Source: Kiritimatiellia bacterium (GTDB lineage Bacteria; Verrucomicrobiota; Kiritimatiellia; UBA8416; JABMPJ01). From it: DNA of 64,000 bases. Below, one piece after another: positions 5,946 through 21,773 of this stretch. The stretch spans positions 11,974-75,973 of the forward strand of contig JASLOA010000007.1 in NCBI GenBank assembly GCA_030745755.1, in the 5' to 3' direction. The translations under genes were made by a program, and so were the position numbers. Positions within the stretch are counted from its first letter, which is position 1. Each line of letters opens with the position of its first letter. The notes beneath the pieces were generated by a model that did not search any database, was not told the origin of the DNA, and saw nothing but the letters and a program-made list of their open reading frames with translations.

Positions 5946-6869
5946 CTAGTCAATCGTAATGGGCGGACGGTAGCCGGGGCGGTGTTTCTCGACCTCGGAC
6001 TGGCACGAGATGCAGTTCTGGACAAAGGGAAGCGCCTTGAGCCGGGCCTTCTCGATGCCGCCACCACACTCATGACACTTGCCGTACGACCCTTCTTCGA
6101 TGCGCTTGAGGGCAACGTCAATCGCGATCAGGGCCTCGTTCTCCGAGCTCGCCAGGTTAAGGGCGAACTGGCGATCGAACGCGTCAGTTCCATCTTCCTC
6201 GATGTTGACCTCGTCCGCACGCGTGAGGGATTCACTCTTGAGCGATTTGATCTGGCCGGCGATACGGTCACGTATATCGAGAAGCTGGAGACGGTACTTC
6301 TCCCTCTGCTTCGCGCCCATAGCGCGGTAGCCACGCGGCTTCACAGTGTGATTGTTCGACTTCTTACGTCCGGGGCGCAGGACCTCGATCTTCTGGGGAG
6401 TCACTTTCGGGCGGGGAGCGAGCGGATCGTTTTCCAGTGTCTTCTTCTTGCGACGGGCACGCTTCCTCGGTGCCGGCCCCTTTACAGCAGCGTCCTTCTC
6501 CGGAGCCGCCTTTTTTCCCTCCGTAGCTTTAGCGGAAGAGGGCTTCTTCGCAGCAGACTTCTTCGCGGGAGCCTTCTTCGCGGCAGGCTTCTTCGCGGCA
6601 GGTTTCTTCGCAGCAGCCTTCTTAGCGGGAGCCTTCTTAACTGCCTTCTTAACTGCCTTCTTCGGGGTCGCCTTCTTCGGGGTCGCCTTCTTGGACGCAG
6701 CCTTTTTACCCGCCGTAGCTTTAGCGGAGGAGGGCTTCTTGGGAGCGCTCTTCTTTGCGGACTTCTTCGCTGGCTTCCTGGGAGCTGGTTTCGACACCTT
6801 CTTCTTGGCCTTGGTTGCTACCTTCTTCTTGGTCGTCGTGCGCTTGGCGCTACTCTTCTTGGCTGGCAT
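5946..6869 (-). CDS. DksA/TraR C4 zinc-finger protein with histone-H1-like Lys/Ala-rich N-terminal tail
   Basis: Start Met at 6869 (MPAKKSSAKR..., RBS GGAGA). About 200 aa of AKK/PKK repeats, then a coiled-coil and the DksA-type zinc finger CHECGGGIEKARLKALPFVQNCISC. Confidence 0.75.
   Translation of the reverse strand: MPAKKSSAKRTTTKKKVATKAKKKVSKPAPRKPAKKSAKKSAPKKPSSAKATAGKKAASKKATPKKATPKKAVKKAVKKAPAKKAAAKKPAAKKPAAKKAPAKKSAAKKPSSAKATEGKKAAPEKDAAVKGPAPRKRARRKKKTLENDPLAPRPKVTPQKIEVLRPGRKKSNNHTVKPRGYRAMGAKQREKYRLQLLDIRDRIAGQIKSLKSESLTRADEVNIEEDGTDAFDRQFALNLASSENEALIAIDVALKRIEEGSYGKCHECGGGIEKARLKALPFVQNCISCQSEVEKHRPGYRPPITID
6480..6800. repeat. tandem 12-15-bp and ~50-bp direct repeats inside the DksA-like gene
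   Basis: Reiterated gccttcttcgc(g/a)g(c/g)ag units encoding the AKKA/PAKK repeats. A ~50-bp duplication appears near 6507 and 6700. Confidence 0.6.
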
Positions 6870-7050
6870 TCTCGTCTCCCCGTCTGAATTTGAGTGCGGG
6901 AAGCTATCATAGCCGCTACAGGCTGTCAACACATGGTGCTCAGCGTCTTTGGGCCGCCTTTTTGCCTCTCGCCAGTCCAATTTCCTTGTCCGCTGCGAAA
7001 CACAGGTGCTAGGGTCTCCGTTTTCCACAGATCGATGGAGAAGCCGACTT

Positions 7051-8595
7051 ATGGAACACGACGACTGGATCGCCATACTTGATTTCGGGTCGCAGTACAG
7101 CCAGCTTATTGCCCGCCGTATCCGCGAGCAGAAAGTCTATTCCGAGCTGCTGCGTTTTGACACCACGGCCGAAGAGCTGCGCAAGCGTAAACCGGCCGGC
7201 ATCGTTCTCTCGGGCGGACCGTCCAGTGTCTTCGACGATGAAGCCCCGCAGTGTGATCCCGCCCTTTTCGATATGGGCATTCCGGTCCTCGGCATCTGTT
7301 ACGGCATGCAGCTCACGGCCCGCACCCTGGGCGGCGATGTAAAACCGGGCGAGGCCCGCGAGTACGGACAGGCCACGATTGAAATCGTCGACCACGCATC
7401 CATCTTCAGCGACCTGCCTGACGAGGCCACGGTCTGGATGAGCCACGGCGACCAGGTGGCCGCCCTGCCCGACGGCTTCAGGGCATTGGCCCAGACCGGC
7501 ACCTGTCCCTATGCGGCGATGGGCAATGACGAGCGGCGCATCTACGGACTACAGTTTCACCCGGAAGTGGTACACACCCCGCGTGGGGTCGACATCCTGC
7601 GCCATTTTGTCTTCGACGCCTGCGGCTGTGGCGGGACCTGGGAGATGGCCCAGTTCATCAAGAGCAGCGTCGCCGCCATCCGTGAACAGGTCGGCACTGA
7701 GCATGTCGTTCTCGGCCTCAGTGGTGGCGTAGACTCCTCCGTTGTGGCGGCCCTGCTGCACAAGGCCATCGGCGATCAGCTGCACTGCATCTTTGTCGAC
7801 AATGGCGTGCTGCGCTACAGGGAGTCCGAACAGGTTGAGCACATGTTTGGCGAGACATTCGGCATGGACCTGCACGTCGTCGACGCCGCCGATCTCTTCC
7901 TCGGCAAGCTGGCAGGGGTTGAAGACCCGGAGAAGAAGCGCAAGATCATCGGCAACACGTTCATCGATGTCTTCGCCGACGAGGCGCGCAAGCTGGGCGA
8001 TGTTAAATACCTCGCCCAGGGAACGCTCTACCCGGACGTCATCGAGAGCTTCTCCCCCATCGGCGGCCCCTCCGCCACGATCAAGAGTCATCACAACGTT
8101 GGTGGGCTCCCGGATGACCTGCATTTTCAGCTGATTGAGCCGGTGCGCGAACTCTTCAAGGATGAAGTGCGCGCGCTGGGGCGTGAATTGGGACTGCCCG
8201 ACCATGTGGTCGATCGCCAGCCCTTCCCGGGCCCCGGCCTGGCTGTACGTATCGTGGGCGAAGTCACCGCTGAACGCGTGGCCCTGCTCCAGCAAGCCGA
8301 CTTGCGTATTCTCGAAGAGCTGGCCACGCTGCCCGATCACAAAGATATCTGGCAATCGTTCGGGGTACTCCTGCCGGTCCAGAGCGTAGGTGTCATGGGC
8401 GACAGCCGCACCTACGAGAATGTCCTCGCCGTGCGCGCGGTCTCCAGCAAAGACGGCATGACCGCCGACTGGTTCAAGGTGTCGTACGATTGCCTGGGCC
8501 GGATCTCCAACCGCATCATCAACGAAGTCCGCGGCATCAACCGCGTCGTCTACGACATCAGCTCCAAGCCGCCCGCCACGATTGAGTGGGAATAG
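7051..8595 (+). CDS. guaA: GMP synthase (glutamine-hydrolysing)
   Basis: [23 protein letters not shown]..., GATase catalytic Cys in GICYGMQ, PP-loop SGGVDSSV, and a C-terminal IEWE. RBS GGAG upstream of ATG at 7051. Confidence 0.9.
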
Positions 8596-8748
8596 GGGGA
8601 ATTGCCGATTGGTGAATGCCGATTGGTGACCTTGCGAGCTTCGGGCCAGCACCCCTCCTTTTTGGGTTGGCTTTTTGGATCTGCTGTAATATATTATAGA
8701 TATATTTGAGTGCATCAAGCACCTCTGAGTCGTTGTGGAGTGGTTGAT

Positions 8749-9393
8749 ATGGGACGCGATAGCCTTAGTTTGGCGGATCAGGCTTACGAATTGCTGGAAG
8801 CGAGGATCGTGAGTTTGGAGTTGGTGCCGGGCGAGATCTATTCCGAGGCGGAGCTGAGTGCGCTGATCGGGGTCGGTCGAACCCCCATGCGGGAGGGGTT
8901 GCTGCGGTTGGCCAAGGAGAAGCTGGTTGAGATGATTCCGCGGCGGGGAGTGGGTGTGACCCGGATCGACCTGACGCGGCATGTGCCGCTCCTGGAGACG
9001 CGCAAGGCTTTGGATGTGCTGATTGCGACGCGCGCGGCGCGGCGCGTTACGGCGGCGCAGAAGGAGTGGTTATCGACGTCTGCGGACGCGATCCTGGAGG
9101 CGGCGCAGCGCGGGGATACCGATGCGTTTCACGCGATCGATGAGGCGTTGGATGCTTTGCTGGGGGAGGCCTGCAACAACCCCTTCGCGGTGGAAGCGGT
9201 GGCCCATCTTTACGCGCATTGCAGGCGGTTCTGGGTCCACTATGGGGAGCATGTTGACGTGCTGCTGCTGGCTCGGCAGCACGCGGCCCTGATGCAGGCG
9301 GTGGCAGGGGGCGATGAGAGCGAAGCCCGAGAGGCCGTGGAGGCCATTATTGACTATCAGATTGAGTTCACGCGATTGGCGCTGGACTTGTAG
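8749..9393 (+). CDS. GntR-family (FadR/FCD-type) transcriptional regulator
   Basis: N-terminal winged HTH (LELVPGEIYSEAELSALIGVGRTPMREGL) and a C-terminal FCD-like helical domain. Sits upstream of the GRE operon. Confidence 0.8.
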   Translation: MGRDSLSLADQAYELLEARIVSLELVPGEIYSEAELSALIGVGRTPMREGLLRLAKEKLVEMIPRRGVGVTRIDLTRHVPLLETRKALDVLIATRAARRVTAAQKEWLSTSADAILEAAQRGDTDAFHAIDEALDALLGEACNNPFAVEAVAHLYAHCRRFWVHYGEHVDVLLLARQHAALMQAVAGGDESEAREAVEAIIDYQIEFTRLALDL

Positions 9394-9403
9394 AGGATGA
9401 TGA

Positions 9404-11911
9404 GTGATGCAGACAGACGTACTTGAAACAGTCGTGCCTAAGCGCGGTACCCCCGAACGGGCACCCCAGTCGCAGGGCAATTTCTATGGCGGCGAGGATA
9501 GGCTGACGCAGGAGCGCGCCGGTGATGCCGATCCGCAGGCACCGGGGATGAATGCCCGGATTCAGCGCTTGCGGCAGAAGAGTTTCGAAGCGGAGCCTTC
9601 GCTGGCGATCGAGCGGGCGCTGCACCAGACGGCTTTCTACAAGCTCCACCATGGCAAGTACTCGGTGCCGGTGATGCGGGCGATGACCTTTCTGGATCAT
9701 TGCCGGAAGAAGACCCTCTATTTCGATGCCGATGAACTGATTGTGGGCGAGCGTGGTCCGGCCCCCAAGGCGGTGCCGACCTTTCCCGAGCTGACCTGTC
9801 ACAGCGTGAAGGATTTTGACGTCCTCAATCACCGCGAGAAGCAGCCCTACAGCATCAGCCAGGCGGACATCGACACCTATGCGCGCGAGGTGATCCCCTA
9901 CTGGAAGGGACGGACCCAGCGCGAGCGAATCTTCGCCCACGTCCCCGATGAGTGGCGCGCGGCCTACGAGGCCGGTTGCTTCACCGAGTTCATGGAGCAG
10001 CGCGCACCGGGACACACCGTGCTCGACGGCAAGCTCTACCGCAAGGGGATGCTGGACTACAAGCGCGAGATCGATGCGCACCTGGAGAGTCTGGACTACA
10101 AGCGGGACGTGGAGGCCAACGACAAGGCCGAGGAACTCAAGGCCATGGCGATCTCCTGCGATGCGGCCATTGTGTTTGCCGAACGCCACGCCGCCTTGCT
10201 GGAGCGCAAGGCCGCCGAACAGAGCGACCCCGACAAGGCGGCGGAGTTGCGAGAGGTCGCTGCGATCTGTCGCCGCGTGCCCGCACACGCCCCCCGGACG
10301 TTTCATGAGGCGGTACAGATGTACTGGTTCTGCCACCTGGGGACGATTACGGAACTGAACGGCTGGGACGCGATGAATCCGGGGCATTTCGATCAGCACC
10401 TGACGCCCTTCTACGAGGCGGAAGTGGCCGCCGGCACGCTCACGCGTGACCGGGCGAAGGAAATTCTCTCCTGTCTGTGGATCAAGGTAAACAACCACAC
10501 GGCGCCGCCGAAGGTGGGCATCACCGCCAAGGAGAGCGGCACCTACAACGATTTCACCAACATCAATATCGGGGGGCTGAAACGCGATGGTTCCGACGGC
10601 GTGAGCGAGGTGTCCTATATCATGCTGGAGCTGATAGAGGACATTCATCTGCTGCAGCCGGGTACCTCTGTGCATGTTAGCGCCAAAACACCGGACGCGT
10701 TCCTGCACGCCGCCTGCAAGGTGATCCGGCAGGGACATGGCTACCCCTCCGTATTCAACCCGGACATCTATATCCAGGAGATGCTGCGCTCGGGCAAGTC
10801 GCTGGAGGATGCGCGCGAGGGCGGCTGCAGCGGCTGCATTGAGGTGGGGGCCTTTGGCAAGGAAGCCTTCCTGCTGACCGGCTACCTCAACGTGCCCAAG
10901 ATCGTGGAGGTAACGCTGAACAATGGTATCGATCCGGAGACGGGGAAGCTAGTGGGCATTGAGACGGGCGACCCGCGGTCGTTTGCCGACTACGAAAGCC
11001 TGTACGAGGCATTCCACAAGCAGTTGGCCTATGTGATCGACCTGAAGATTCGTGTCAGCAACTACATCGACACCATGTTCGCAAAGTATGCACCGGCGCC
11101 CTTCTTGTCGGTGCTGATCGATGACTGCATTGCCAAGGGTCGGGACTACTACAACGCCGGCCCCCGCTACAACACCAACTACATCCAGTGCTGCGGCCTG
11201 GGAACAGCCGCCGATAGTCTGCTGGCGCTCAAGAGGCACGTCTTCGATGATGCCCGCTATTCGATGGATGAGGTCCTGGCCGCCGTGGCTGAGAACTTCG
11301 AGGGTGAGGAGGTCATGCGCCAGACCATACTCAACAAGACCCCCTTCTACGGGAACAACCTGGACTATGCCGATCAGGTTGCCGTGAAGCTCTACGACGA
11401 CCTGGTCGATCTCATCGACGGCGAACCTAACATCAAGGAGGGCGGCCAGTACCACTTGAACATGCTCTCGACCACCTGCCACATCTACTTCGGCAAGGTG
11501 ATGGGTGCCACGCCCAACGGCCGCCTGGCACACAAATCCATCTCCGACGGCACCTCGCCATCCCACGGCGCCGACCAGCGCGGACCCTCGGCGGTGGTTC
11601 AGTCGCTGGGAAAACTCGATCAGATCCAATCGGGCGGCACGCTGCTGAACCTGCGATTTCTACCGAGCCTGCTGAAGCGTGACGAGGATATCACGAAGTT
11701 GGGGCACCTGATCCGGAGCTACTTCGTCCAGGGCGGGCATCATGTCCAATTCAACATCGTCGATACCGCGACCTTGCGCGCCGCGCAGCGCACGCCCGAG
11801 GATTACAAGGACCTGTTGGTGCGGATGGCCGGCTACAGCGACTATTTCAATGACATGAACGGCGATCTGCAACAGGAAGTAATCGACCGCACGGAAAACG
11901 AATCCTTCTAG
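9404..11911 (+). CDS. glycyl radical enzyme, trans-4-hydroxy-L-proline dehydratase-like (HypD-like)
   Basis: C-terminal glycyl radical motif RMAGYSDYF and a GCSGC Cys loop. EFMEQRAPGHTV, PPKVGIT and N-terminal AEPSLAIERA resemble HypD as I recall it. Start is uncertain (9404 or the Met at 9548). Confidence 0.8.
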   Translation: MMQTDVLETVVPKRGTPERAPQSQGNFYGGEDRLTQERAGDADPQAPGMNARIQRLRQKSFEAEPSLAIERALHQTAFYKLHHGKYSVPVMRAMTFLDHCRKKTLYFDADELIVGERGPAPKAVPTFPELTCHSVKDFDVLNHREKQPYSISQADIDTYAREVIPYWKGRTQRERIFAHVPDEWRAAYEAGCFTEFMEQRAPGHTVLDGKLYRKGMLDYKREIDAHLESLDYKRDVEANDKAEELKAMAISCDAAIVFAERHAALLERKAAEQSDPDKAAELREVAAICRRVPAHAPRTFHEAVQMYWFCHLGTITELNGWDAMNPGHFDQHLTPFYEAEVAAGTLTRDRAKEILSCLWIKVNNHTAPPKVGITAKESGTYNDFTNINIGGLKRDGSDGVSEVSYIMLELIEDIHLLQPGTSVHVSAKTPDAFLHAACKVIRQGHGYPSVFNPDIYIQEMLRSGKSLEDAREGGCSGCIEVGAFGKEAFLLTGYLNVPKIVEVTLNNGIDPETGKLVGIETGDPRSFADYESLYEAFHKQLAYVIDLKIRVSNYIDTMFAKYAPAPFLSVLIDDCIAKGRDYYNAGPRYNTNYIQCCGLGTAADSLLALKRHVFDDARYSMDEVLAAVAENFEGEEVMRQTILNKTPFYGNNLDYADQVAVKLYDDLVDLIDGEPNIKEGGQYHLNMLSTTCHIYFGKVMGATPNGRLAHKSISDGTSPSHGADQRGPSAVVQSLGKLDQIQSGGTLLNLRFLPSLLKRDEDITKLGHLIRSYFVQGGHHVQFNIVDTATLRAAQRTPEDYKDLLVRMAGYSDYFNDMNGDLQQEVIDRTENESF

Positions 11912-11919
11912 GTGCCACA

Positions 11920-12834
11920 ATGAGTGTTTCCTGCCTCGTGTTTGATACGAAGCGCTACGCCATCAACGATGGTCCCGGCGTCCGCGTGACCATCTTCCTG
12001 AAGGGATGTCCGCTGCGATGCGCCTGGTGCCATAACCCCGAGAGCATCGCCCCGCAGATGGAGAAGATGTACACGCCGGGCAAGTGCATTGGCTGCCTGG
12101 CCTGCATCGAGGCCTGTCCGGAAGACGCGCTGACGATGACGGAGGAGCGTGGTGTGGTCACCGACTTCGAGGCGTGCACGATGTGCGGGCTCTGTGCCGA
12201 GTGCTGTCCGACCGGTGCCATGGAGATGGTCGCCGAGATGACGGATGTGCAGGCGGTGGTCGACGCCGTCCTGGAAGAGCGCGTCATTATCGACCAGTCC
12301 GGAGGGGGCGTGACCTTTTCCGGGGGCGAGCCGTTGATGCATCATCGCTTCCTGATCAAAGCGTTGGAAGCCTGCCGGGCCGAGGGGATTCATTGTACGG
12401 TGGACACATCCGGATTTGCGCCAGGGGAGGTCCTGATGGCGGTGGCCGCGCGGACCGATCACTGGCTCTATGATCTGAAGAGCATGAATCCGGATACCCA
12501 TCTCAGATGGACCGGCGTGCGCAATGAGGTGATCCTGGAGAATCTCACGGCGCTGGCCGAGTCCGGGGCCTCGATCAATATTCGGATCCCTCTGATCGAA
12601 GGGGTCAATGCAGACGACGAGAACATGCGGACGACGGCGGCGTTTGTAAAGGGACTGGCGGGGGAGCCCAAGCAGGTGAATCTGCTGCCCTACCACAAGA
12701 TCGCGGAGAGCAAGTACGCCAAGCTGGGTCGGACGATCGAGCTGGAGGGGATGGCGGAGCCCTCGGAGGAGCGGCTGGCAGAGATTGCCGCCATGTTCAG
12801 CGCAAGCGGTCTCGACGCCACAGTGGGTGGTTGA
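11920..12834 (+). CDS. glycyl-radical enzyme activating enzyme (radical SAM)
   Basis: CPLRCAWCHNPE (Cx3Cx2C) plus two ferredoxin-type clusters, CIGCLACIEACP and CTMCGLCAECCP. Lies immediately downstream of the GRE. Confidence 0.85.
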   Translation: MSVSCLVFDTKRYAINDGPGVRVTIFLKGCPLRCAWCHNPESIAPQMEKMYTPGKCIGCLACIEACPEDALTMTEERGVVTDFEACTMCGLCAECCPTGAMEMVAEMTDVQAVVDAVLEERVIIDQSGGGVTFSGGEPLMHHRFLIKALEACRAEGIHCTVDTSGFAPGEVLMAVAARTDHWLYDLKSMNPDTHLRWTGVRNEVILENLTALAESGASINIRIPLIEGVNADDENMRTTAAFVKGLAGEPKQVNLLPYHKIAESKYAKLGRTIELEGMAEPSEERLAEIAAMFSASGLDATVGG

Positions 12835-12848
12835 GGTAACGCCTGGAG

Positions 12849-13073
12849 GTGCACATGACCATTGAATATGTTCTGCACACGGGGGAGACGGTCGATGAGA
12901 CCGGGGCGACGGTGTGGATCGACGGCGACCAGTTGGCCCGCCTCTACGGCGTCGCGATCAGCCGATGCCTGATCCTCAATCCAGACCACAGTCCGGAGCT
13001 GGAAGCACTGATCCCGCCTGACGCCACGCACCTGCACATCCAAAAGGATGGCAAGTATCCGCAGTGCTTCTAG
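12849..13073 (+). CDS. small hypothetical protein (74 aa) downstream of the activase
   Basis: Strong RBS GGAGGTG 8 nt before the ATG. Composition looks coding, but no recognisable motif. Confidence 0.35.
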   Translation: MHMTIEYVLHTGETVDETGATVWIDGDQLARLYGVAISRCLILNPDHSPELEALIPPDATHLHIQKDGKYPQCF

Positions 13074-13076
13074 GCT

Positions 13077-13808
13077 TCACACTGCCGTCTTGCGAAAGAC
13101 GCCTGGGGTGAGTCCGGTGGTGGCCTTGAACTGGCGCGTGAAGGCGCTTTGGTCGCAGAAGCCGCACCGCACCGCGATGTCGGCAATGGACGTTGCTTCC
13201 TCGCGAAGCATGTCGCGGGCGGCGTCGATGCGTGTATGCATGATGAACTGTCCAGCCGTAAGGCGGAAGATGCGTTTCATACGCTGCTCCAGCTTATACG
13301 GTGAGATCGAGGCCATGTCCGCCAGGTCTTCCACTCGCAGGGGGGTGTCGTAGCGGGTACGGATGTGGTCGATGACGGCCGACATCTCCGGGAAGTTCTC
13401 ACCGCGCCCCTTGGGTACATGCAGGTCCCGCGAGAACCCGGTCATACCCACGACCGCTCCTGTGATCCCGAAGATCGGGGTCTTGTGGGTCAGGCACCAA
13501 CCGGGCACGCCCTGGGCGTAGAGTTGGAGCTCCAGCTTGTCCTTGATTGGCTTGCCGGACTCGAGTACGTGCCGGTCCTGCGCGAGGTACTCTATGCCGA
13601 ACGGGGGTGGGTAGACCTCGGCCGCGGTCTTTCCAATGACGTCGGATTTCGAGGTAAATCCACAACGTGCTGCCACAGTGCGATTGATCAGGACGTAGCG
13701 CCCCTGTTTATCTTTGACGAAGAAGACGATATCCTCAACGTCATCAAACAGTGCCTCCATGACAGCCAGGGCGTCAAGTCGACTGCTAAGTTCGGGGGTC
13801 ATATCCAT
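13077..13808 (-). CDS. PAS domain plus AraC-family HTH transcriptional regulator
   Basis: N-terminal PAS-like fold (IVFFVKDKQGRYVLINR) and a C-terminal AraC HTH (IADIAVRCGFCDQSAFTRQFK). Confidence 0.75.
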   Translation of the reverse strand: MDMTPELSSRLDALAVMEALFDDVEDIVFFVKDKQGRYVLINRTVAARCGFTSKSDVIGKTAAEVYPPPFGIEYLAQDRHVLESGKPIKDKLELQLYAQGVPGWCLTHKTPIFGITGAVVGMTGFSRDLHVPKGRGENFPEMSAVIDHIRTRYDTPLRVEDLADMASISPYKLEQRMKRIFRLTAGQFIMHTRIDAARDMLREEATSIADIAVRCGFCDQSAFTRQFKATTGLTPGVFRKTAV

Positions 13809-13963
13809 TCGCTCTTTCTATCGCATTCATCCACGAACCTCAACTCTGTTAAAAAACTCAAGTAAACACTGAAATGTAGTCCTATCGCATCGCGGTCTCA
13901 CGCGGCTATTCTCAGAGCACTGAACCTTGACGGTTAACCGCAATACGCTACCAGGGAGACGAT

Positions 13964-15592
13964 ATGCAGAATACGGTCAGTAACATTCCCATGCCGGACA
14001 ATGAACCCGTTCTCAGCTATGCACCGGGAACGCCGGAGCGCGCCCTGCTGGACCAGGCGTTGCAGGACATCAGTGCGCAGCAGGTAGAGATTCCGATTGT
14101 TATCGGTGGCCGCCGTATCACCACCGGCAAAACCGGCACATGCATTGAGCCGCACAACCACGCGAGCGTGCTGGCGACCTACCACAAGGCGGGTACCGCC
14201 GAAGTCGCGATGGCCATCCAAGCCAGCCAGGACGGCAAGGCTGAATGGGAAGCGCTGCCGGCGAAGGCACGTGCTTCGGTTTTTCTGAAAGCGGCCGAGT
14301 TGCTCCGTACGAAGTACCGCTACCGCCTGAATGCGGTGACGATGTTGACGCAGAGCAAGAACGCCTTCCAGGCGGAGATTGACAGCGCCTGTGAACTGAT
14401 CGATTTCTGGCGGTTCAATGCCTATTACATGCAGGAGCTCTACGGACAACAGCCTGACTACAGTCCGGTCGGGATGCTGAACTATGTCGAGCATCGTCCG
14501 CTTGAGGGTTTTGTATTTGCCGTCTCCCCGTTCAACTTCACGTCGATCGCGGGCAATCTCCCCACAGCCCCGGCCCTGATGGGCAACACGGTGCTGTGGA
14601 AGCCTTCGCGCAACGGGGTCTACTCCTCCTACATCATCATGCAGATTCTCGAGGAGGCAGGCCTGCCGCCAGGCGTCATCAACTTCGTGCCCGGAGACTC
14701 GGGCGACATCGGCGATCCCGTCTTCGAGTCTGAGCATTTTGCCGGCATTCATTTCACAGGCAGCACCTCCGTATTTCAGAAGATGTGGAAGCAGATCGGG
14801 GACAACATCGGGCGCTACCATGCCTATCCCCGGATCGTGGGTGAAACCGGCGGCAAGGACTTCGTCTTTGCGCATCCCTCTGCCGATGTCGAGGCGCTGG
14901 TGGTTGCCCTCGTGCGGGGTGCCTTCGAGTACCAGGGGCAGAAGTGCTCTGCCGCGTCGCGCGCCTATGTCCCGGCCAGCCTCTGGCCGGCGGTGAAGCA
15001 GGGGCTGATCGAGACGCTGAGCACGGTCAAGATGGGCCCCGTGCAGGACTACACCAACTTCGTGAATGCCGTAATCGATCAAGGCAGCTTCGATAAGTGC
15101 AAGCGCTACATCGATACGGCGCGCGAGGCCGACGATGCCGAGATGGTTTGCGGGGGAGACTGCGACGACAGCGTCGGCTACTTTGTTCAGCCCACGGTGA
15201 TCCATGCACAGGATCCCCACTATGCCTCCATGCTGGACGAGATCTTTGGCCCGATCCTGAGCATCTATGTCTATGAGGATGCCGAACTGGAGGCGACGCT
15301 GGAGCTCTGCAACACGAGTTCAATGTATGCCCTGACCGGGGCGGTATTCGCCAGGGACCGCCGCGTGATTCAGCACATGTTCGATGCACTGCGTCATGCC
15401 GCCGGCAACTTCTATATCAATGACAAGCCCACCGGTGCGGTGGTCGGGCAGCAGCCCTTTGGTGGCGGCCGTGGCTCAGGCACCAACGACAAGGCCGGCT
15501 CGATTCTGAACCTGCAGCGCTGGGTGTCACCGCGCACGGTCAAAGAGACCTTCAATCCGCCGACCGACTATCGCTATCCGTTTATGGGGTAG
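13964..15592 (+). CDS. L-glutamate gamma-semialdehyde (1-pyrroline-5-carboxylate) dehydrogenase
   Basis: 542 aa aldehyde dehydrogenase superfamily with the catalytic Cys in EYQGQKCSA and a FTGST NAD-binding region. Overall resembles RocA/PutA-C-type P5CDH. Confidence 0.8.
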   Translation: MQNTVSNIPMPDNEPVLSYAPGTPERALLDQALQDISAQQVEIPIVIGGRRITTGKTGTCIEPHNHASVLATYHKAGTAEVAMAIQASQDGKAEWEALPAKARASVFLKAAELLRTKYRYRLNAVTMLTQSKNAFQAEIDSACELIDFWRFNAYYMQELYGQQPDYSPVGMLNYVEHRPLEGFVFAVSPFNFTSIAGNLPTAPALMGNTVLWKPSRNGVYSSYIIMQILEEAGLPPGVINFVPGDSGDIGDPVFESEHFAGIHFTGSTSVFQKMWKQIGDNIGRYHAYPRIVGETGGKDFVFAHPSADVEALVVALVRGAFEYQGQKCSAASRAYVPASLWPAVKQGLIETLSTVKMGPVQDYTNFVNAVIDQGSFDKCKRYIDTAREADDAEMVCGGDCDDSVGYFVQPTVIHAQDPHYASMLDEIFGPILSIYVYEDAELEATLELCNTSSMYALTGAVFARDRRVIQHMFDALRHAAGNFYINDKPTGAVVGQQPFGGGRGSGTNDKAGSILNLQRWVSPRTVKETFNPPTDYRYPFMG

Positions 15593-15699
15593 AGACGGGG
15601 GTAAGAAGAACAATATAGGATGTTTGTGTACATGACCGCGAAGGTCGACTGTACTGTCGCCGGACCGGGCCGGTGGACTCAGGCAAAGAGGAGAGCGCA

Positions 15700-16941
15700 A
15701 TGGGTGCACAGATTGGTGAGTTGACGTTTCTGGAGGTGTTGGCGTCGCGGTTCAAGATTCCGGCGCCGGACTTTGTGGTAGAGCCTGTGCGGCAGTCCGA
15801 CGTAAAGCGCAAGCTGGCGGACTGGGGCAGCGGCATCGTCAAACCGGATGTCCTGGCAGGCAAGCGGGGCAAGGCCGGCACGGTGCGCCAGGTCGATGAC
15901 TACCACGAGGCCGTGAAGCTCCTCAAGCGGGTTGCGGCCAAGGTGGTCTCAGGCCAGCAGCCCCGGACGGCTTACATGGTCCAGACGGTCCCGGCCGACC
16001 TGGAGGTGTTCTCGGCCATTACTTACAATTCCCGCTATCTCGCGCCGTCCCTCACCGTCTCCACGAAGGGCGGGGTCGATATTGAATCGGTGGATGAGGC
16101 GGACAAGGTCACCGTACCCCTGAACGTGTTTCGCGGGCTCAATGCCTACCAGGCGTCGGAGGCGCTGGTGAAGGCGGGGTTACCGGAGGGCAAGCTCAAC
16201 TCAAAGCTGGCGCTCTGTCTCGTGAAGCAGTGGGACATGTTCAGCGCGACGGGCATGCAGAGCTGCGAGATCAACCCCTGGCGCGTGACAGAAGCCGGCG
16301 CGGTGTGCGCCTGCGACTTCAAGGCCACGTTCGATGAGAACAATATCAAGTTCCGGGATCTGGGCTTTGAGTTGCCCGAGTATCCGACCATGGTGGATGC
16401 GTTCGAGGAGGAAATGAACGCCTGGGCGGCATCCAGTCACCAGGGCCAGGCTCACGTGGCTGACCTGGGCGGCAAACTCATTCTCCCCATGCTGTTTGGC
16501 GGCGGGGCGAGTACGATTGTGATCGAGACCTTGGCACAGGCCGGGGGCGACCCCATGTTTCTCTCCGACTTTGGCGGCAATCCGCCGTATGAGCGCATGA
16601 AGAAAACCGCGGAGATCTGCCTGCGACACAAGCTGGCCGATGCCTCCCTGCTCTTGATCCTGGGTGGCAAAGCCAACAACACGCAGATCGATATAACGTT
16701 TGCCGCGATTGCCGACGCCCTGCAGGAGTGGGTCGATGACAATGGTCCGCATCCGATCCCTGTAGTGATCGGCCGCGGTGGCCCCGGGCTGGTGCAGGGG
16801 TTCGCGGTGATGAAGAAGACGCTTGAGAATCTAGGAATGCCGTATGTGTTCTTTGGGCCGGACACGCCGATTACGCTGGTGGCTTCCTATGCGGCCCGAC
16901 TGGCAAAGCAGTGTGCCAAGGCCAACGGAGGTGCGAAATGA
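15700..16941 (+). CDS. ATP-grasp succinyl-CoA-synthetase-beta-like subunit (ATP-citrate lyase AclB-like)
   Basis: ATP-grasp fold followed by a ligase-CoA domain. Paired with the next gene through an ATGA overlap. ATG at 15700 has RBS AGGAGAG. Confidence 0.65.
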   Translation: MGAQIGELTFLEVLASRFKIPAPDFVVEPVRQSDVKRKLADWGSGIVKPDVLAGKRGKAGTVRQVDDYHEAVKLLKRVAAKVVSGQQPRTAYMVQTVPADLEVFSAITYNSRYLAPSLTVSTKGGVDIESVDEADKVTVPLNVFRGLNAYQASEALVKAGLPEGKLNSKLALCLVKQWDMFSATGMQSCEINPWRVTEAGAVCACDFKATFDENNIKFRDLGFELPEYPTMVDAFEEEMNAWAASSHQGQAHVADLGGKLILPMLFGGGASTIVIETLAQAGGDPMFLSDFGGNPPYERMKKTAEICLRHKLADASLLLILGGKANNTQIDITFAAIADALQEWVDDNGPHPIPVVIGRGGPGLVQGFAVMKKTLENLGMPYVFFGPDTPITLVASYAARLAKQCAKANGGAK

Positions 16942-19013
16942 TTGCCAGATCGCTGAGTGGGCTGTTGAAGAAGGGCGACCGGGTGGCGGTGTCGAACATC
17001 ACCGGCCGCGAGGCCTCCAAGGTGAGTACGATTTCGCAGCAGTACTGCGGCAACGTCGTGGCCGGTTGGGCGCTGGGCAAGTCGGGGAAGTGGGTCGAGG
17101 TCCCGGGCGAAACGTCGATCCCCGTATTCGGCCAGTTCGACGAGATGCTCACGCAACTTCCGGAGAATCGCTGGCCGACGAAGATCATCGTCTATTCACC
17201 GCCCGACGCGGTGTATGGCGACGTCAAGGAGGCCCTCGAGAATAACCGGGGCAGCGTCAGGACGGTGTTTGTAATCACCGAGAATGTCTCCATCGAGGTC
17301 ACGTCCAAGTTGCGACGGTTGGCGGACACCGAGGGCGTCGACATCCTGGGCTGCAACACGCTCGGCGTGATCAACGTGCACGACAAGGTGCGTGTGGGTG
17401 CGGTGGGCGGCGACTCGCCGAATGAAACGTTCAGGAAGGGCAGCGCCTGTGTCATCTCCAACTCGGGCAACATGGTCAACACGGTTGCGTCCTACCTGCA
17501 GTCGGCGGGACTGGGTGTCTCCTACGGGATTTCGACGGGTAAAGATGTCAACATCCTGACGCCTTTGAAGGATCTGCTGGCACTGGCGATGCGCGACAAA
17601 CGCACCAGCATGATCGTGCTGTACGTGGAGCCTGGCGGCGTGTACGAGGCCGAAGCCATTGAGGCGATCAAGGGGCGGCGCAGCCCCAAACCGATCCTGG
17701 TCTACGTGGCCGGGGAGTTTGCCGAGAGCATCGACGTCTCGCTGGGCCATGCCGGTGCCGTTGTGGATGGGGCAGGCACATCGGCATCGGGCAAGAAAGC
17801 GCTCTTTGACGATTACTTTGGTGTGCCTGTATTCGACTTCTATGAGCGACGCAAGGCACCCAAACTGCTGGCGGAACATCGTCGCGGCATCCGCGTCAAC
17901 GCCCTGCACGATCTGGTTCCCGCCGCGACCGCACTGATGTCCGCGCTCAAGATCAAACGTGATTTCGCCCCGCTACGCCCGTTGGCCCTGCGGCCCTGGT
18001 TTGTCGAGCTCGGCCCGCTGGCGAAGGTGTTGCCACGTGATCTGGTTCCCTACGTGGCGCCGATTCCGGAGCCGTACGCCAAACTGGTCAAGCACTATGT
18101 GACCTCCAGCATCGGGCGCGTGCCGAGTCGACAGCCGATGCGGGGTGTCTCGCATGCGTCGTCCAACGACGGGGCCACCCCCCGTATCTACGGGCGCTCG
18201 CTTATCGGCCTTATGAAGACCGGCTCGTTTGCCGACACGGTGTTGCTGTACTGGCTCGGGCAACCCGTCAAACACACCTTCGAGGCGCGCCTGTTTGACA
18301 TGTGTCTGATGGCCGCCTTGACGAACGGACCGGGAACCATATCGGCCCAGGGCGCAAAGCTTTCCGCCTCGGCAGGGAACGGTCCCAACACGGCAATGAT
18401 GGCCACGCTGGGCAGTATCGGGACGGTACATGGCGGCAATGGCTCGAAGGCGGCCCGCGTGTTGATCAATGTGTTCCGCGATACGGATCTGGTCGACCCG
18501 TATGACCGCGCGGCGGCTCCGGACCTCGACGCACTGGTGCTGACGTTTGTCAAGGCGTTCAAACAGCGCAAGAAGCTGGCCAAGGAGGCCGGCGTCGCCT
18601 ATGAGAAAGTGCCCTGCCTGGGCCATCCAGTCTTCAACACCGAGGCGATCAACTATGACCCGCGTGAACGCGTGATCGACGCGGTCATGGGCGAGGAGAA
18701 GCTCTATAACGTCTTCCTCGACTTCTATCACCGCCTCTCGCGCGGCATGATGGAGCAATGTGCCACGAGCAAGGTGCATGCCGTCAACGTGGATGCCGCG
18801 CTGACCTGTGTGTTGATGGGCATCGCCTGGCCCTTGCTGGTCGACAAGAAGATCACGGTCGAACGCGCGGTCGATCTACCGTTCCTGGCCTTCGCCCTGG
18901 GTCGCGTTGCGGGCGGGGCCGGGGAGTATCTGGATCACCGCGACAGCGGAACGGCAATGGATATGCGTGTCCCGGTCAGCGAATGCCGCTTCCTCGGTCG
19001 CGATCAGGATTGA
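16938..19013 (+). CDS. SCS-alpha-like plus citrate-synthase-like fusion (ATP-citrate lyase AclA-like)
   Basis: CoA-binding and phospho-His region (SLGHAGAVV), and a C-terminal citrate-synthase-family domain with LGHPVFNTEAINYDPRE. Confidence 0.7.
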   Translation: MIARSLSGLLKKGDRVAVSNITGREASKVSTISQQYCGNVVAGWALGKSGKWVEVPGETSIPVFGQFDEMLTQLPENRWPTKIIVYSPPDAVYGDVKEALENNRGSVRTVFVITENVSIEVTSKLRRLADTEGVDILGCNTLGVINVHDKVRVGAVGGDSPNETFRKGSACVISNSGNMVNTVASYLQSAGLGVSYGISTGKDVNILTPLKDLLALAMRDKRTSMIVLYVEPGGVYEAEAIEAIKGRRSPKPILVYVAGEFAESIDVSLGHAGAVVDGAGTSASGKKALFDDYFGVPVFDFYERRKAPKLLAEHRRGIRVNALHDLVPAATALMSALKIKRDFAPLRPLALRPWFVELGPLAKVLPRDLVPYVAPIPEPYAKLVKHYVTSSIGRVPSRQPMRGVSHASSNDGATPRIYGRSLIGLMKTGSFADTVLLYWLGQPVKHTFEARLFDMCLMAALTNGPGTISAQGAKLSASAGNGPNTAMMATLGSIGTVHGGNGSKAARVLINVFRDTDLVDPYDRAAAPDLDALVLTFVKAFKQRKKLAKEAGVAYEKVPCLGHPVFNTEAINYDPRERVIDAVMGEEKLYNVFLDFYHRLSRGMMEQCATSKVHAVNVDAALTCVLMGIAWPLLVDKKITVERAVDLPFLAFALGRVAGGAGEYLDHRDSGTAMDMRVPVSECRFLGRDQD

Positions 19014-19021
19014 GCACGTCT

Positions 19022-20161
19022 TCAGATACCGTGTAGCGGGAAGATCGTGCGTTTGATCTCGGCGATGGTGGCGTCGACGGCGGTGTCGACCTCGTCGCGA
19101 CGGCCGGCGTCGGAGAGCAGGACGCGGTCGCGCAGGCCGCCGAACCAATCGGTGTTGCCCATCATCACTCCGCCCATGCCCAGCATGGCATCCTCATGGT
19201 CGGTGTGATCGCCACACAGTACGCCCCAACAGAGCGCCCAGGCGCGTACGGTATGCTCGAGGTGGTAGCCGCCTCCGCCGGTAGCCAGCATCGGTTTATC
19301 GAGACCGACAACCGTTTCAACGATATCAGCCGGCGTGTTGTTGGTGAGCTGCATGTGAGCCAGCGGATCGCCCGAGAGCGTATCCATGCCAAGCTCCATG
19401 ATGATCACGTCGGGGTCAAAGGCCTTGATCAGAGGCAGCGCAGCCTGGTCGAAGGCGCGTCGGTAGGCGGCGTCATAGGTTCCCACGGGGAGCGGGACGT
19501 TAACGGAGTAGCCGACCCCCTTGCCCTCCCCCACCTCGCAGACAAACCCGGTGCCGGGAAAAAGCGTATGCCCGCTCTCGTGCATGGAGACGGTCATTAC
19601 ATCCTTGTGTGAGTAGAATGCCTTCTGCACGCCGTCGCCATGATGAACGTCGACGTCTAGAAAGAGGACGCGCTTGCCGGCTGCAAGGAACGCGTTGGCG
19701 GCCATGACCAGGTCGTTGAGGTAGCAGAATCCTGAGGCCTGCCCTGCATGGGCGTGGTGCAGCCCTCCGGACGGATTGAACGCCACCTTTGCCTTTCCGT
19801 CGATGATCCAGCGCGCGCCTGTGATTGAAGCGCCGGCAGCCAACGTCAGATACGCCATCATGCCGGGCCAGACAGGGCAGTCGGGTGTGCCGAGTCCCAT
19901 GTTCAGCGCCTCAAAGGGGTCCAACGTACCGGCCGCCGCGGCCTCTACCGCGTCGAGATACTCCGCCGTGTGAAACGCTTCCAGTTCTCCGCGCGTGGCG
20001 CGTACCGGGGCCACCACCTCACGGTCGTCGCCGGCGAGCAGCCCCATGGATTCCGCCGTGCTCAGCGCCCGGGAGGCCCGGCTGGTATTGAACGGACACT
20101 GCGGCGGGTACCCGTTCTGGTTCAGGTCATCGCTGTGGATGAAGATGTGGTTGTTTTGCAT
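19022..20161 (-). CDS. histone deacetylase / AcuC / acetylpolyamine amidohydrolase family protein
   Basis: Arginase-deacetylase fold motifs DVDVHHGDGVQ and GGGGY. Confidence 0.8.
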   Translation of the reverse strand: MQNNHIFIHSDDLNQNGYPPQCPFNTSRASRALSTAESMGLLAGDDREVVAPVRATRGELEAFHTAEYLDAVEAAAAGTLDPFEALNMGLGTPDCPVWPGMMAYLTLAAGASITGARWIIDGKAKVAFNPSGGLHHAHAGQASGFCYLNDLVMAANAFLAAGKRVLFLDVDVHHGDGVQKAFYSHKDVMTVSMHESGHTLFPGTGFVCEVGEGKGVGYSVNVPLPVGTYDAAYRRAFDQAALPLIKAFDPDVIIMELGMDTLSGDPLAHMQLTNNTPADIVETVVGLDKPMLATGGGGYHLEHTVRAWALCWGVLCGDHTDHEDAMLGMGGVMMGNTDWFGGLRDRVLLSDAGRRDEVDTAVDATIAEIKRTIFPLHGI

Positions 20162-20243
20162 TGCATTGCCCTCACGGCTCGCCGGGGACAGCTCGCCCTA
20201 CCCCATTCACGGTAAGGTAGGGCGAGCCGTCCCGGCGAGCCGC

Positions 20244-21773
20244 TTATGGAAACACCGCCTCCGGGGTTTCAACATTTGGCATCTTGCCTTGTCTCATCGC
20301 TTTCAGCAGGTCCCCATAGACCTGCCGATTGACGTACAGCATGGCAGGTCCATCGGAGTGAATCAACTGCCAGTCTCGCCGACGGGCCAGGCGGCCCGCG
20401 ATCGGGTTGCCATAGTGTACGAGCGCCATATCGGTTGGGTACGCTGTCAGGATGCGCTCCCACCCGTTGCGCCCGTAGAGACCGGCGATGTAGTCCTCCA
20501 CGACCGGCTCACTATAGGCCGAGCGGAACCGGCCATCCATGAAGACCCGGCACTGCGGGTAGAGGTGCCAGGTGCAGTACTCGGCCCAGTCGAAGAAAAC
20601 AAAGATGTTACCGGACACCCCGTGCTGTTTCATGAACGCCACGGTCCGCAGCGGATAATCGTCGGCCTTGATTTCGATCTCAAGCGGACGTGCCTTGTTG
20701 AAGGTCGCGGCCGTATAGAGAGAGAAAGGAATGAACAGCGCCAGCACGACCGCCCACACCACGCGAGGCAGGCGTCCGGCCAGCCGGTCGATCACCTCGC
20801 CGGCCATACCTTCAACATGCCGCCCCGCCGTGAATCCTGCCACAATCGCGAACAGCGGTATGTTCCGGCGTAAGACGATCGCCGCCAGGAGCGAGAGGTA
20901 GAGAATCGTCGTCCAGGCCAAGTCCTTGTGCGTCCGGGAGAACGGGTAGGCACAACAGACCACAATGGCCAGCCCGATGAAATCCGGATGGATCATCCAG
21001 TGCCGGATCGGGCTGAATGGCGCCCACTCACTCAGGTACGGCCGCGCCGTGCCGCCCGACTCGAGGATGAAGCTCCACAGCCGGATACCGAACGGGTTCA
21101 CAAACGTGGCGACAACAAACAGTGCAACGCCGCCGAAAAGGACAAGCGGGAGCCAGCGGAGCTGGACGGCATGACGTCGACTGCTAATGGTCTCCAGCAC
21201 CGCATGAACCAGCAGCACGATAGCGCCGATGAAAAATGCACCGTGAAGGTTGGCCCACAGCATCCCCAGCAAGGGAAAGACCAACAGGTGCAGCCAGGCC
21301 CGCCGCCGAAATCCTTTAAGAAGGAATAGAAACAGAGCCAGCAGCAGGTAGGTAAAATGGTGCGGGCGCACACCGAACCCGTAGCTCATCGTGGAAATGA
21401 TCAGCACCATCAGCAGCATCCGCACCGCACCAGAGCAACACTCGTGTCGAAGGGTTGCATGCATCAGTGCCAGCACGACCAGCCCCAACAGCGTCTTGAG
21501 AATCAGGAGACCCGTATTGCCCGACAGCAGCCAGGTCTGATGGAACAGGTATTGCGCCAGCCACTCATGGTTGACCCATGGCCGGTCCGGCTCCGTATAG
21601 GAATAGGTGTTCGTGACATGGAAATCGTCGCACCCGGGGAGCGCGCGGACAAACCCGACATTCCCCCACAGGTCCACGTCGGCCTTGTTATCGGAAAACA
21701 CCTGCAGGGCAAAACAGACCACGGCCGCGACGGCCAACCCGTGAACGACAGACTGCAGGCGAGGCACACGCAT
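20244..21773 (-). CDS. polytopic membrane protein (GT-C/ArnT-PMT-like fold suspected)
   Basis: 509 aa with about 12 hydrophobic segments and a larger C-terminal soluble part. No definitive motif. Confidence 0.5.
   Translation of the reverse strand: MRVPRLQSVVHGLAVAAVVCFALQVFSDNKADVDLWGNVGFVRALPGCDDFHVTNTYSYTEPDRPWVNHEWLAQYLFHQTWLLSGNTGLLILKTLLGLVVLALMHATLRHECCSGAVRMLLMVLIISTMSYGFGVRPHHFTYLLLALFLFLLKGFRRRAWLHLLVFPLLGMLWANLHGAFFIGAIVLLVHAVLETISSRRHAVQLRWLPLVLFGGVALFVVATFVNPFGIRLWSFILESGGTARPYLSEWAPFSPIRHWMIHPDFIGLAIVVCCAYPFSRTHKDLAWTTILYLSLLAAIVLRRNIPLFAIVAGFTAGRHVEGMAGEVIDRLAGRLPRVVWAVVLALFIPFSLYTAATFNKARPLEIEIKADDYPLRTVAFMKQHGVSGNIFVFFDWAEYCTWHLYPQCRVFMDGRFRSAYSEPVVEDYIAGLYGRNGWERILTAYPTDMALVHYGNPIAGRLARRRDWQLIHSDGPAMLYVNRQVYGDLLKAMRQGKMPNVETPEAVFP

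Follow-up and report, generated by a model that had tools for sequence, protein, structure and literature searches.

Genes and candidate regulatory DNA of the locus

Between positions 8749 and 15592 of the window, by which we mean the whole 64-kb stretch of DNA that was analysed, lie the genes of two regulators, a glycyl-radical enzyme, a radical SAM activase and an aldehyde dehydrogenase. The first-pass annotation had given the coordinates and orientations of these five genes correctly; all have full-length domain matches far beyond chance, and gene callers yield the same genes on an identical public contig (Kiritimatiellia MAG GCA_030749005.1). A conserved small ORF that was missed in that annotation is added below, together with an intergenic element and two genes further downstream.

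8749..9393, + strand: GntR-family regulator with an FCD (ligand-binding) domain, 214 aa (PF00392 54.7 bits, PF07729 63.5 bits)
9404/9407..11911, + strand: glycyl-radical enzyme, assigned to HypD (PFL-like 745 bits, Gly_radical 111 bits)
11920..12834, + strand: radical SAM glycyl-radical activase, assigned as the HypD-activating enzyme, 304 aa (TIGR02494 331 bits, cut-off 174)
12855..13073, + strand: conserved 72-aa ORF between the activase and PAS-AraC genes
13077..13808, - strand: PAS-AraC regulator, 243 aa (PAS_4 60.3 bits, HTH_18 79.5 bits)
13839..13862, no strand given: conserved element CTCAACTCTGTTAAAAAACTCAAG in the divergent intergenic region between the PAS-AraC and P5CDH genes, from the alignment with L085
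13964..15592, + strand: predicted L-glutamate gamma-semialdehyde (P5C) dehydrogenase (P5CDH) of the ALDH4A1 type, 542 aa (TIGR01236 792.1 bits, cut-off 613.6)
15700-19013, + strand: citryl-CoA synthetase-like pair, two genes after P5CDH, with the alpha subunit fused to a citryl-CoA lyase-like domain

The genes of the locus fall into two modules, one made up of the GntR/FCD gene, hypD, the activase gene and the 72-aa ORF, and the other of the divergently transcribed PAS-AraC and P5CDH genes. The PAS-AraC gene is also convergent with the hypD module, and it stands alone in the 891 bp between the 72-aa ORF and the P5CDH start. The hypD module is a compact, mobile unit, which in its closest relatives (L003, L101, L105 and L107) is found in unrelated neighbourhoods with no P5CDH, and the two modules adjoin each other in this lineage only. 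In L085, the closest relative of P5CDH with a visible context, the PAS-AraC gene (71% identical) is kept divergent from the P5CDH gene (86% identical), and beyond it there is no hypD module, neither activase nor 72-aa ORF. Judged from this anatomy, the PAS-AraC/P5CDH pair is under its own control, and hypD and P5CDH would form two regulatory units and not one operon. Downstream of the locus lies a large integron cassette array.

Immediately upstream of HypD, a 214-aa GntR gene is also present in L003 (59% identical), L105, L106 and L107, and the GntR/FCD protein, encoded by the first gene of the hypD module, is a probable local regulator. It probably represses the module until Hyp or a product appears; the ligands of this protein and of the PAS-AraC regulator are putative. 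Upstream of the GntR gene a sigma-70-like site is found at 8667-8695, a kind of site whose counts are not above those in shuffled controls. In the divergent region of the other module, CTCAACTCTGTTAAAAAACTCAAG is the sole long block that is identical to the intergenic region of L085, with diverged flanks on both sides, and we regard it as a candidate operator or promoter element. The scan for promoters and terminators over 8400-20400 gave counts no higher than the shuffled controls, and it can therefore not be used to set operon boundaries.

The glycyl-radical enzyme and its partners

The glycyl-radical enzyme had been named HypD in the first-pass annotation, and this name holds. The enzyme scores 1128.8 bits against the NCBIfam equivalog NF043068 (glycl_HYPD), above the curated cut-off of 1100, and the runner-up glycyl-radical models follow at 591 (TIGR01774), 544 (HpsG) and 475 bits (CutC). 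The best solved structure is that of C. difficile HypD (PDB 6vxc; 959.8 bits, 50% identity), compared to 474.9 bits for CutC, 468.1 for glycerol dehydratase (GD), 407.6 for HpyG, 407.5 for HpzG, 397.6 for HplG and 104.9 for PFL, so that the enzyme groups neither with PFL nor with glycerol dehydratase. In the alignment with the C. difficile enzyme, using the HypD-specific residue list of PMC7077986, all 14 of the 14 active-site and radical residues are identical. F196, R200, H204, W321, D322, K370 and S378 correspond to C. difficile F152, R156, H160, W277, D278, K326 and S334, and D383, F384, C478, E480, Y494, T690 and G810 to D339, F340, C434, E436, Y450, T645 and G765. The Cys loop with its CXE motif is thus C478-I-E480 against C434-V-E436, and the glycyl-radical site is G810 within VRMAGYSD. 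Relatives with 74-76% identity to the enzyme are named HypD by NCBI. On these sequence grounds we identify the glycyl-radical enzyme of the locus as HypD, and its active-site identity with the C. difficile enzyme suggests that it would convert Hyp to P5C and water.

It is very improbable that the substrate is something other than trans-4-hydroxy-L-proline, be it another hydroxyproline isomer, N-methyl-Hyp, glycerol or a diol, choline or pyruvate. What could be said for such a substrate is that the HypD equivalog is barely passed, that the identity to characterised HypD is 50%, and that characterised HypD has no counterpart to the N-terminal tail of the enzyme. Against this, the residues that define HypD by substrate contact and acid/base chemistry (H160, D278, S334, D339, F340, Y450 and T645 in C. 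difficile numbering), none of which is conserved in other eliminases (PMC7077986), are all kept, and HplG, HpyG, HpzG, CutC, GD and PFL reach 105-475 bits versus 960 for HypD. The substrates of PFL, glycerol dehydratase, CutC, HplG, HpyG and HpzG are ruled out by the scores together with the active-site residues.

The start of hypD is most likely ATG 9407, which is preceded by GAGGA and lies 11-14 nt past the GntR stop, rather than ATG 9548, the start in the public annotation. With this start, residues 1-48 form the conserved N-terminal tail, which contains the motif PER....EGNFY. Tail-bearing HypD makes up a large and mainly environmental subclade. The AF2 model of the full 835-aa protein, built with 40 close homologues, has a mean pLDDT of 62, and below 40 in the tail, which is too low for judging whether the tail docks on the enzyme.

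The radical SAM gene that follows starts 8 nt past the HypD stop. Its product has the CX3CX2C motif (CPLRCAWC) and two ferredoxin-type Cys motifs, CIGCLACIEACP and CTMCGLCAECCP, and it passes TIGR02494 by a wide margin, 331 against 174 bits. The best equivalog is the T4HPD activase model NF043069 (349 bits, under its cut-off of 425), and a homologue is found beside HypD in 79 of 83 loci. By motifs, scores and position the 304-aa protein is assigned as the activase of HypD.

The 72-aa ORF lies downstream of HypD and the activase in every visible context and is fixed in this HypD lineage. Its product has relatives in 29 protein clusters, with 61-89% identity and almost all of 72 aa. A Pfam search gave no match to it, and its AF2 model (pLDDT 84) found no fold match in the PDB, the best E-value being 0.5. 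Over its full length it is a distant member of the phage family phrog_7644 (E=7.7e-8). A tie between this family and phage NrdD/NrdG glycyl-radical enzymes was rejected, as three phage contexts held small hypothetical early-region genes only. Any role of the 72-aa protein in the HypD system is putative. It is conceivable, though we consider it doubtful, that the tail of HypD is regulatory and that the phrog_7644-derived protein is an accessory or protective subunit, the two belonging to a variant HypD system that enables the use of Hyp; the linkage of the 72-aa ORF is seen in the Kiritimatiellia-like lineage. If this was true, the variant system together with P5CDH would let non-Stickland, glycan-degrading anaerobes use the hydroxyproline of glycoproteins or collagen for carbon and nitrogen.

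P5C dehydrogenase and the proposed route to glutamate

The score of the aldehyde dehydrogenase is above the cut-off of TIGR01236, the P5CDH equivalog, and the best match of the enzyme in the PDB is the M. tuberculosis P5CDH 4idm (625 bits), followed by human and mouse ALDH4A1 at about 580 bits. The catalytic motifs VGETGGKD (Glu) and GQKCSA (Cys) are present and aligned to 4idm. The enzyme is thereby assigned as P5CDH, in line with the first-pass annotation. With both HypD and P5CDH confirmed in this way, the best reading of the locus, and one that we find probable, is that it encodes the route from Hyp over P5C to glutamate that had been proposed, with HypD and its activase for the first step and P5CDH for the second. 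That P5CDH takes the product of HypD is suggested by its position and by the recurrence of the pair in other phyla.

With SAM and a reduced [4Fe-4S] cluster the activase would generate a radical on Gly810 of HypD, which would be passed on to Cys478, and Cys478 would then take a hydrogen from C5 of Hyp. Asp322, His204 and Glu480 would help the 4-OH group to leave as water, which would give delta-1-pyrroline-5-carboxylate (P5C). After opening of the ring to glutamate semialdehyde, the NAD+-dependent P5CDH encoded next door would form glutamate and NADH, and the glutamate would enter carbon and nitrogen metabolism.

Among 80 other species-level genomes there are four (L010, L023, L079 and L080, from three phyla) in which a P5CDH of the same type, with 53-66% identity, is encoded within 10 kb of HypD, and with the present locus the association is found in Kiritimatiellota, Verrucomicrobiota, Desulfobacterota and Bacteroidota. 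In Coraliomargarita the order is P5CDH-HypD-activase on one strand with a gap of 77 nt, two Muribaculaceae have the order P5CDH-x-XaaPro peptidase-HypD-activase, and in one Desulfuromonadales genome an amino-acid ABC transporter lies between P5CDH and HypD. With p=0.005 the binomial P for 4 of 80 is 7e-4, and it rises to 0.007 when the two Muribaculaceae are counted as a single event.

A less likely, though by no means negligible, explanation is that HypD is real and its adjacency to P5CDH incidental. A ProC encoded elsewhere would then reduce P5C to proline, to supply biosynthesis, to protect against osmotic stress or to dispose of electrons, and the PAS-AraC/P5CDH pair would serve general catabolism of proline, ornithine or arginine. 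The separate regulation of the two modules, which are separable and stand apart in the nearest relatives, speaks for this and against a coupling, and so do the mainly unrelated contexts of the P5CDH homologues. HypD was found in none of the 15-17 loci of a metagenome scan centred on P5CDH, which marks the latter as a general enzyme, not a subfamily dedicated to HypD, that could serve any of these three catabolic pathways. At about 74 of the 80 HypD loci both P5CDH and ProC are missing from the neighbourhood, ProC being encoded close to HypD in 2 of the 80, so HypD mostly depends on enzymes encoded elsewhere, and in the Coraliomargarita locus both P5CDH and ProC are beside HypD. On the other hand, the pairing of P5CDH with HypD recurs above chance in three other phyla, at some loci in an operon-like order, and since the enzyme would accept P5C whatever its origin, flux would be shared despite the different regulation. 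Within the 64-kb window, tblastn with the ProC of the HypD locus L010 found nothing, a result that has the scope of the window, as the genome outside it may hold proC, prd or ProDH. The window contains no Hyp transporter and no prolyl peptidase, which also counts against the proposed route, as does the score of the activase below its HypD-specific cut-off. We still keep to the oxidation of P5C by the neighbouring P5CDH as the best reading.

The citryl-CoA synthetase-like pair might extend the system into a larger unit, co-transcribed with P5CDH and processing the carbon from glutamate, possibly over 2-oxoglutarate, isocitrate and citrate to acetyl-CoA and oxaloacetate. The pair is on the same strand, it begins 108 nt past P5CDH after a gap without a terminator-like site on the + strand, its top PDB matches are the subunits of Hydrogenobacter citryl-CoA synthetase (118 and 133 bits), and its C-terminal domain is citryl-CoA-lyase-like. 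However, the other four loci with P5CDH and HypD lack this linkage, another gene follows P5CDH in its closest relative, L084, and the counts of the terminator scan were not above those of the shuffled controls. We know of no precedent for a route from glutamate to citryl-CoA, and regard such a unit as improbable.

Comparison with known hydroxyproline systems

The closest known counterpart is the HypD / HypD-AE / P5C reductase system of C. difficile, reportedly described by Levin et al. in 2017. Structures of the C. difficile enzyme are available (6VXC/6VXE; Backman et al. 2020, PMC7077986). The two systems share the enzyme family and active site, an adjacent dedicated radical SAM activase and P5C as the product. 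In C. difficile, proC is adjacent, whereas the Kiritimatiellia locus has P5CDH in this place, which would turn the branch towards glutamate by oxidation, in place of the reduction to proline that feeds Stickland fermentation. The Kiritimatiellia enzyme further differs in its 48-aa N-terminal tail, the module in its GntR/FCD regulator and 72-aa ORF, and the host, a member of the PVC group, is not a Clostridium. The contrast with the Clostridial route from HypD to P5C reductase had been drawn before from the sequence, and it is correct for a window without proC, though it is not new.

Other glycyl-radical eliminases that act on hydroxyproline isomers, HplG (7VUA), HpyG (8ID1) and HpzG (8IOF), use D- or N-methyl isomers or cleave a C-N bond (PMC13450708). 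They share the CXE Cys loop with HypD, and differ from the present enzyme in scoring 398-408 bits against it, compared to 960 for HypD. M. tuberculosis P5CDH (4IDM) and human/mouse ALDH4A1 (3V9G, 3V9J) are similar to our P5CDH over the full length and share its catalytic motifs with Cys and Glu, but they use P5C from proline dehydrogenase, whereas the proposed source here is a radical dehydratase.

The aerobic pathway of Pseudomonas and Sinorhizobium employs Hyp 2-epimerase, D-Hyp dehydrogenase, a deaminase and KGSA dehydrogenase (in part PMC6219649). Like the route proposed here it draws carbon and nitrogen from Hyp, has an aldehyde dehydrogenase step to a central C5 metabolite and is under GntR-family control. 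The GntR-type repressor of the Hyp pathway in S. meliloti is HypR. The chemistry is altogether different, as it is oxidative, probably linked to O2, and leads by way of pyrroline-4-hydroxy-2-carboxylate to 2-oxoglutarate, and no enzyme of this pathway is found in the window.

HypD, which is sensitive to oxygen, is among the most abundant glycyl-radical enzymes of anaerobic communities, and the fate of its product is known for proline-reducing Clostridia only; in most other anaerobes its role is unclear according to its discovery authors (PMC6219649). In the literature we found no experiment on HypD outside Clostridia. The oxidative branch is stated by Huang et al. 2018 (PMC6219649), who proposed for Oscillibacter valericigenes that a dehydrogenase encoded nearby would oxidise the P5C made by HypD to L-glutamate, and a full-text search found no other statement of it, its matches being papers on vertebrate metabolism and E. 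coli ProC. The idea is the same as ours, but there it is a genomic remark of one sentence on a Firmicute with a putative dehydrogenase, and here the enzyme is an ALDH4A1-type P5CDH past its equivalog cut-off. The HypD family is already known and the oxidative branch already proposed; the locus refines this proposal and opens no new question. It extends the range of HypD to the Kiritimatiellia, which degrade sulfated glycans and glycoproteins in the sea, and together with its four counterparts in other phyla it provides clean candidates for an oxidative branch from Hyp to glutamate and NADH in organisms that are not Stickland fermenters.

Gene layout and enzyme identities

The first-pass annotation had read 8749-15592 as a glycyl-radical enzyme (GRE) cluster consistent with the breakdown of hydroxyproline (Hyp) to glutamate. 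The ORF map and the Pfam and NCBIfam scans bear out the genes and positions that it gave, with one addition, an ORF of 72 aa that it did not contain.

Genes of the cluster and the preceding guaA, from the ORF map with Pfam and NCBIfam scans
ends at 8595, +, guaA
8749-9393, +, GntR/FCD regulator
9404-11911, +, PFL-like and Gly_radical protein (HypD)
11920-12834, +, radical-SAM activase
12855-13073, +, 72-aa ORF
13077-13808, -, PAS-AraC regulator
13964-15592, +, aldehyde dehydrogenase (P5CDH)

The GRE protein is 100% identical to one of the Kiritimatiellia MAG GCA_030749005.1 (contig JASMKX010000012), where the gene order is the same. Against all PDB chains it matched the dehydratase of trans-4-hydroxy-L-proline (HypD) from C. 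difficile (6VXC/6VXE) over the full length with 960 bits and 50% identity (396/786 aligned positions), compared with 475 bits for CutC, 468 for glycerol dehydratase and 105 for E. coli PFL, and 408, 408 and 398 for the Hyp-acting GREs HpyG, HpzG and HplG. With the NCBIfam equivalog model for HypD (NF043068) it reached 1128.8 bits, above the cut-off of 1100. The other family models scored 591 (PFL2/glycerol dehydratase subfamily), 544 (sulfopropanediol dehydratase), 475 (CutC) and 141-442 (PFL). The catalytic and substrate-binding residues of C. difficile HypD have been mapped by structure and mutagenesis (Backman et al. 2020, PMC7077986), and every residue that we drew from that work (F152, R156, H160, W277, D278, K326, S334, D339, F340, C434, E436, Y450, T645 and G765) is identical in the window; D278 and D339 are strictly conserved across HypD, but not in other eliminases (PMC7077986). 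Scores at the HypD level and identical residues therefore place the enzyme apart from PFL and glycerol dehydratase, the grouping that the first-pass annotation had set against its own reading. Judged by its sequence, the GRE is almost certainly a HypD.

Its start is very probably the ATG at 9407, which has GAGGA ahead of it, and not the ATG at 9548 of the public annotation; the long form is also called by other gene callers. Residues 1-48 (9404-9547) form an extra tail with a conserved PER....EGNFY motif. Of 80 related loci, at least 34 have this motif in frame, among them loci of Bacteroidota, Desulfobacterota, Verrucomicrobiota, Chloroflexota and others, whereas C. difficile HypD is without the tail. 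In gut Bacteroidales loci the tblastn matches start no earlier than about residue 48. An AF2 model was not good enough for placing the tail.

In the activase the CX3CX2C motif reads CPLRCAWC, and there are two cysteine clusters of the ferredoxin-like kind. The protein passes the generic model for GRE activases; among the specific models that of the HypD activase fits best, yet the score of 349 is below the cut-off of 425. The aldehyde dehydrogenase is, as first read, a delta-1-pyrroline-5-carboxylate (P5C) dehydrogenase, P5CDH. It scores 792 against TIGR01236 (L-glutamate gamma-semialdehyde dehydrogenase; cut-off 614), its closest structures are P5CDH of M. tuberculosis, with 625 bits, and ALDH4A1 of human or mouse, with about 580 bits, and the two catalytic motifs, GQKCSA with the cysteine and ETGGKD with the glutamate, are matched in the alignment. 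These comparisons establish the identities of HypD, activase and P5CDH.

Right after P5CDH, at 15700-19013 (+), two genes resemble the large and small subunits of citryl-CoA synthetase (best PDB match 6HXQ, 133 and 118 bits), the second with a citryl-CoA-lyase-like C-terminal domain fused on. Together they are predicted to form an enzyme like ATP-citrate lyase, here in a PVC anaerobe that is a heterotroph. At 5946-7076 (-) lies a DksA/TraR-type zinc-finger protein whose N-terminal region is long, rich in lysine and alanine, and similar to histone H1 (HC2). The G+C content is about 60-62% in the first 28 kb of the window and 50-56% at 28 to 62 kb. Beyond an integron integrase at 27362-28840 (-; TIGR02249, 431 bits), the lower-G+C DNA (about 28900-62000, some 33 kb) contains many attC-like repeats, AACAA...GAGCGTACGGCTAAAGCCGCCGCTC...CGTT, and resembles the large cassette array of a chromosomal integron, here in a genome of the Kiritimatiellia.

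Two units side by side

The order GntR, HypD, activase, 72-aa ORF is kept in relatives with 85-92% HypD identity and in contigs with homologues of the 72-aa protein, and GntR is seen in every relative contig that extends far enough upstream. The flanks of this module differ in each relative: MFS transporters downstream and, upstream, an M24 peptidase and a Pro_racemase-family gene in the 85% identical one (L003), an alpha/beta hydrolase in L101, DUF4826 and an S9 peptidase in L105, GFO/ABC genes in L106 and a solute-binding protein in L107. No P5CDH was found near the module in any of these five. Among the P5CDH relatives whose context can be seen, the closest (L085, 86% identity) keeps the divergent PAS-AraC regulator at 71% identity, and beyond it both the activase and the 72-aa ORF are absent; the block CTCAACTCTGTTAAAAAACTCAAG between PAS-AraC and P5CDH is identical to that of the window, while the surroundings have diverged. 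The window is therefore a juxtaposition of two separately regulated units, and not one operon.

The M24 gene of L003 encodes a Xaa-Pro peptidase, and the Pro_racemase-family gene belongs to a hydroxyproline epimerase- or dehydratase-like family; both lie divergent from the module (7063-9211, -), which suggests a feed of peptide-bound Hyp or of other Hyp isomers. At 8604-8630, just past guaA and upstream of the promoter-like site of GntR, the 12-nt sequence GCCGATTGGTGA stands as a direct repeat of two copies 15 nt apart; it may be an operator, or may have arisen by chance.

The 72-aa protein always lies downstream of the activase in this HypD lineage. Its family is strongly conserved (WIDGDQLARLYGV...YPQCF; 29 clusters), with about 100 clusters of small proteins as remote kin, and it is a remote member of the phage family phrog_7644 (phages of E. 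coli, Caulobacter, C. difficile and others). Neither a Pfam match nor a PDB fold match was found, and the phage contexts of phrog_7644 gave no functional hint.

HypD and P5CDH across genomes

With the window proteins we searched 80 species-level genome loci with HypD relatives (65-76% identity), and a P5CDH of the window's type, with 53-66% identity, was inside the fetched flanks of four. In a Coraliomargarita sp. MAG (Verrucomicrobiota; L010, 2055-8020) P5CDH, HypD and activase are on one strand and the P5C reductase gene, ProC, follows immediately and convergently, so that oxidative and reductive fates of P5C are encoded at one locus. Two Muribaculaceae loci have P5CDH, one further gene, an M24B Xaa-Pro peptidase, HypD and activase on one strand, and in a Desulfuromonadales locus P5CDH and HypD are separated by ABC transporter genes of the branched-chain type. 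Under a chance proximity of 0.5% per genome, which we regard as generous, 4/80 has P=7e-4, or P=0.007 with the two Muribaculaceae merged as one event. When every neighbouring ORF was clustered in an unbiased way, P5CDH came out, behind the activase, as one of the neighbours that recur most. ProC was present in just 2 of the 80 and M24B prolyl peptidases in 9-10, and most loci have HypD and activase without a P5C-consuming gene close by. This supports an association that is real and recurrent, but held by a minority. Since P5CDH homologues elsewhere stand in unrelated contexts, P5CDH is not a subfamily specific to HypD but a general enzyme, recruited in some cases.

Proposed pathway

HypD would convert Hyp to P5C by the radical dehydration that has been established with HypD of C. 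difficile, P5C would give glutamate semialdehyde, and P5CDH would oxidise this with NAD+ to glutamate, yielding NADH and a central amino acid. This pathway is the most likely function, and we consider it fairly probable. We infer the coupling of HypD to P5CDH, and likewise the ligands of the regulators; the pathway may serve to draw nitrogen or carbon from Hyp-rich glycoproteins or collagen.

The role of Hyp is still unclear for most HypD-encoding anaerobes (Huang et al. 2018, PMC6219649). The oxidative branch from P5C to glutamate was proposed in the same work for Oscillibacter valericigenes, with a putative dehydrogenase close to HypD, and our literature search found no paper testing it and none linking Kiritimatiellia with HypD. 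The finding is thus a known enzyme, correctly annotated, in a host that is new for it, and fits this earlier proposed variant. In the Clostridial route P5C is reduced to proline and NADH is consumed, whereas the route proposed for the window would yield it.
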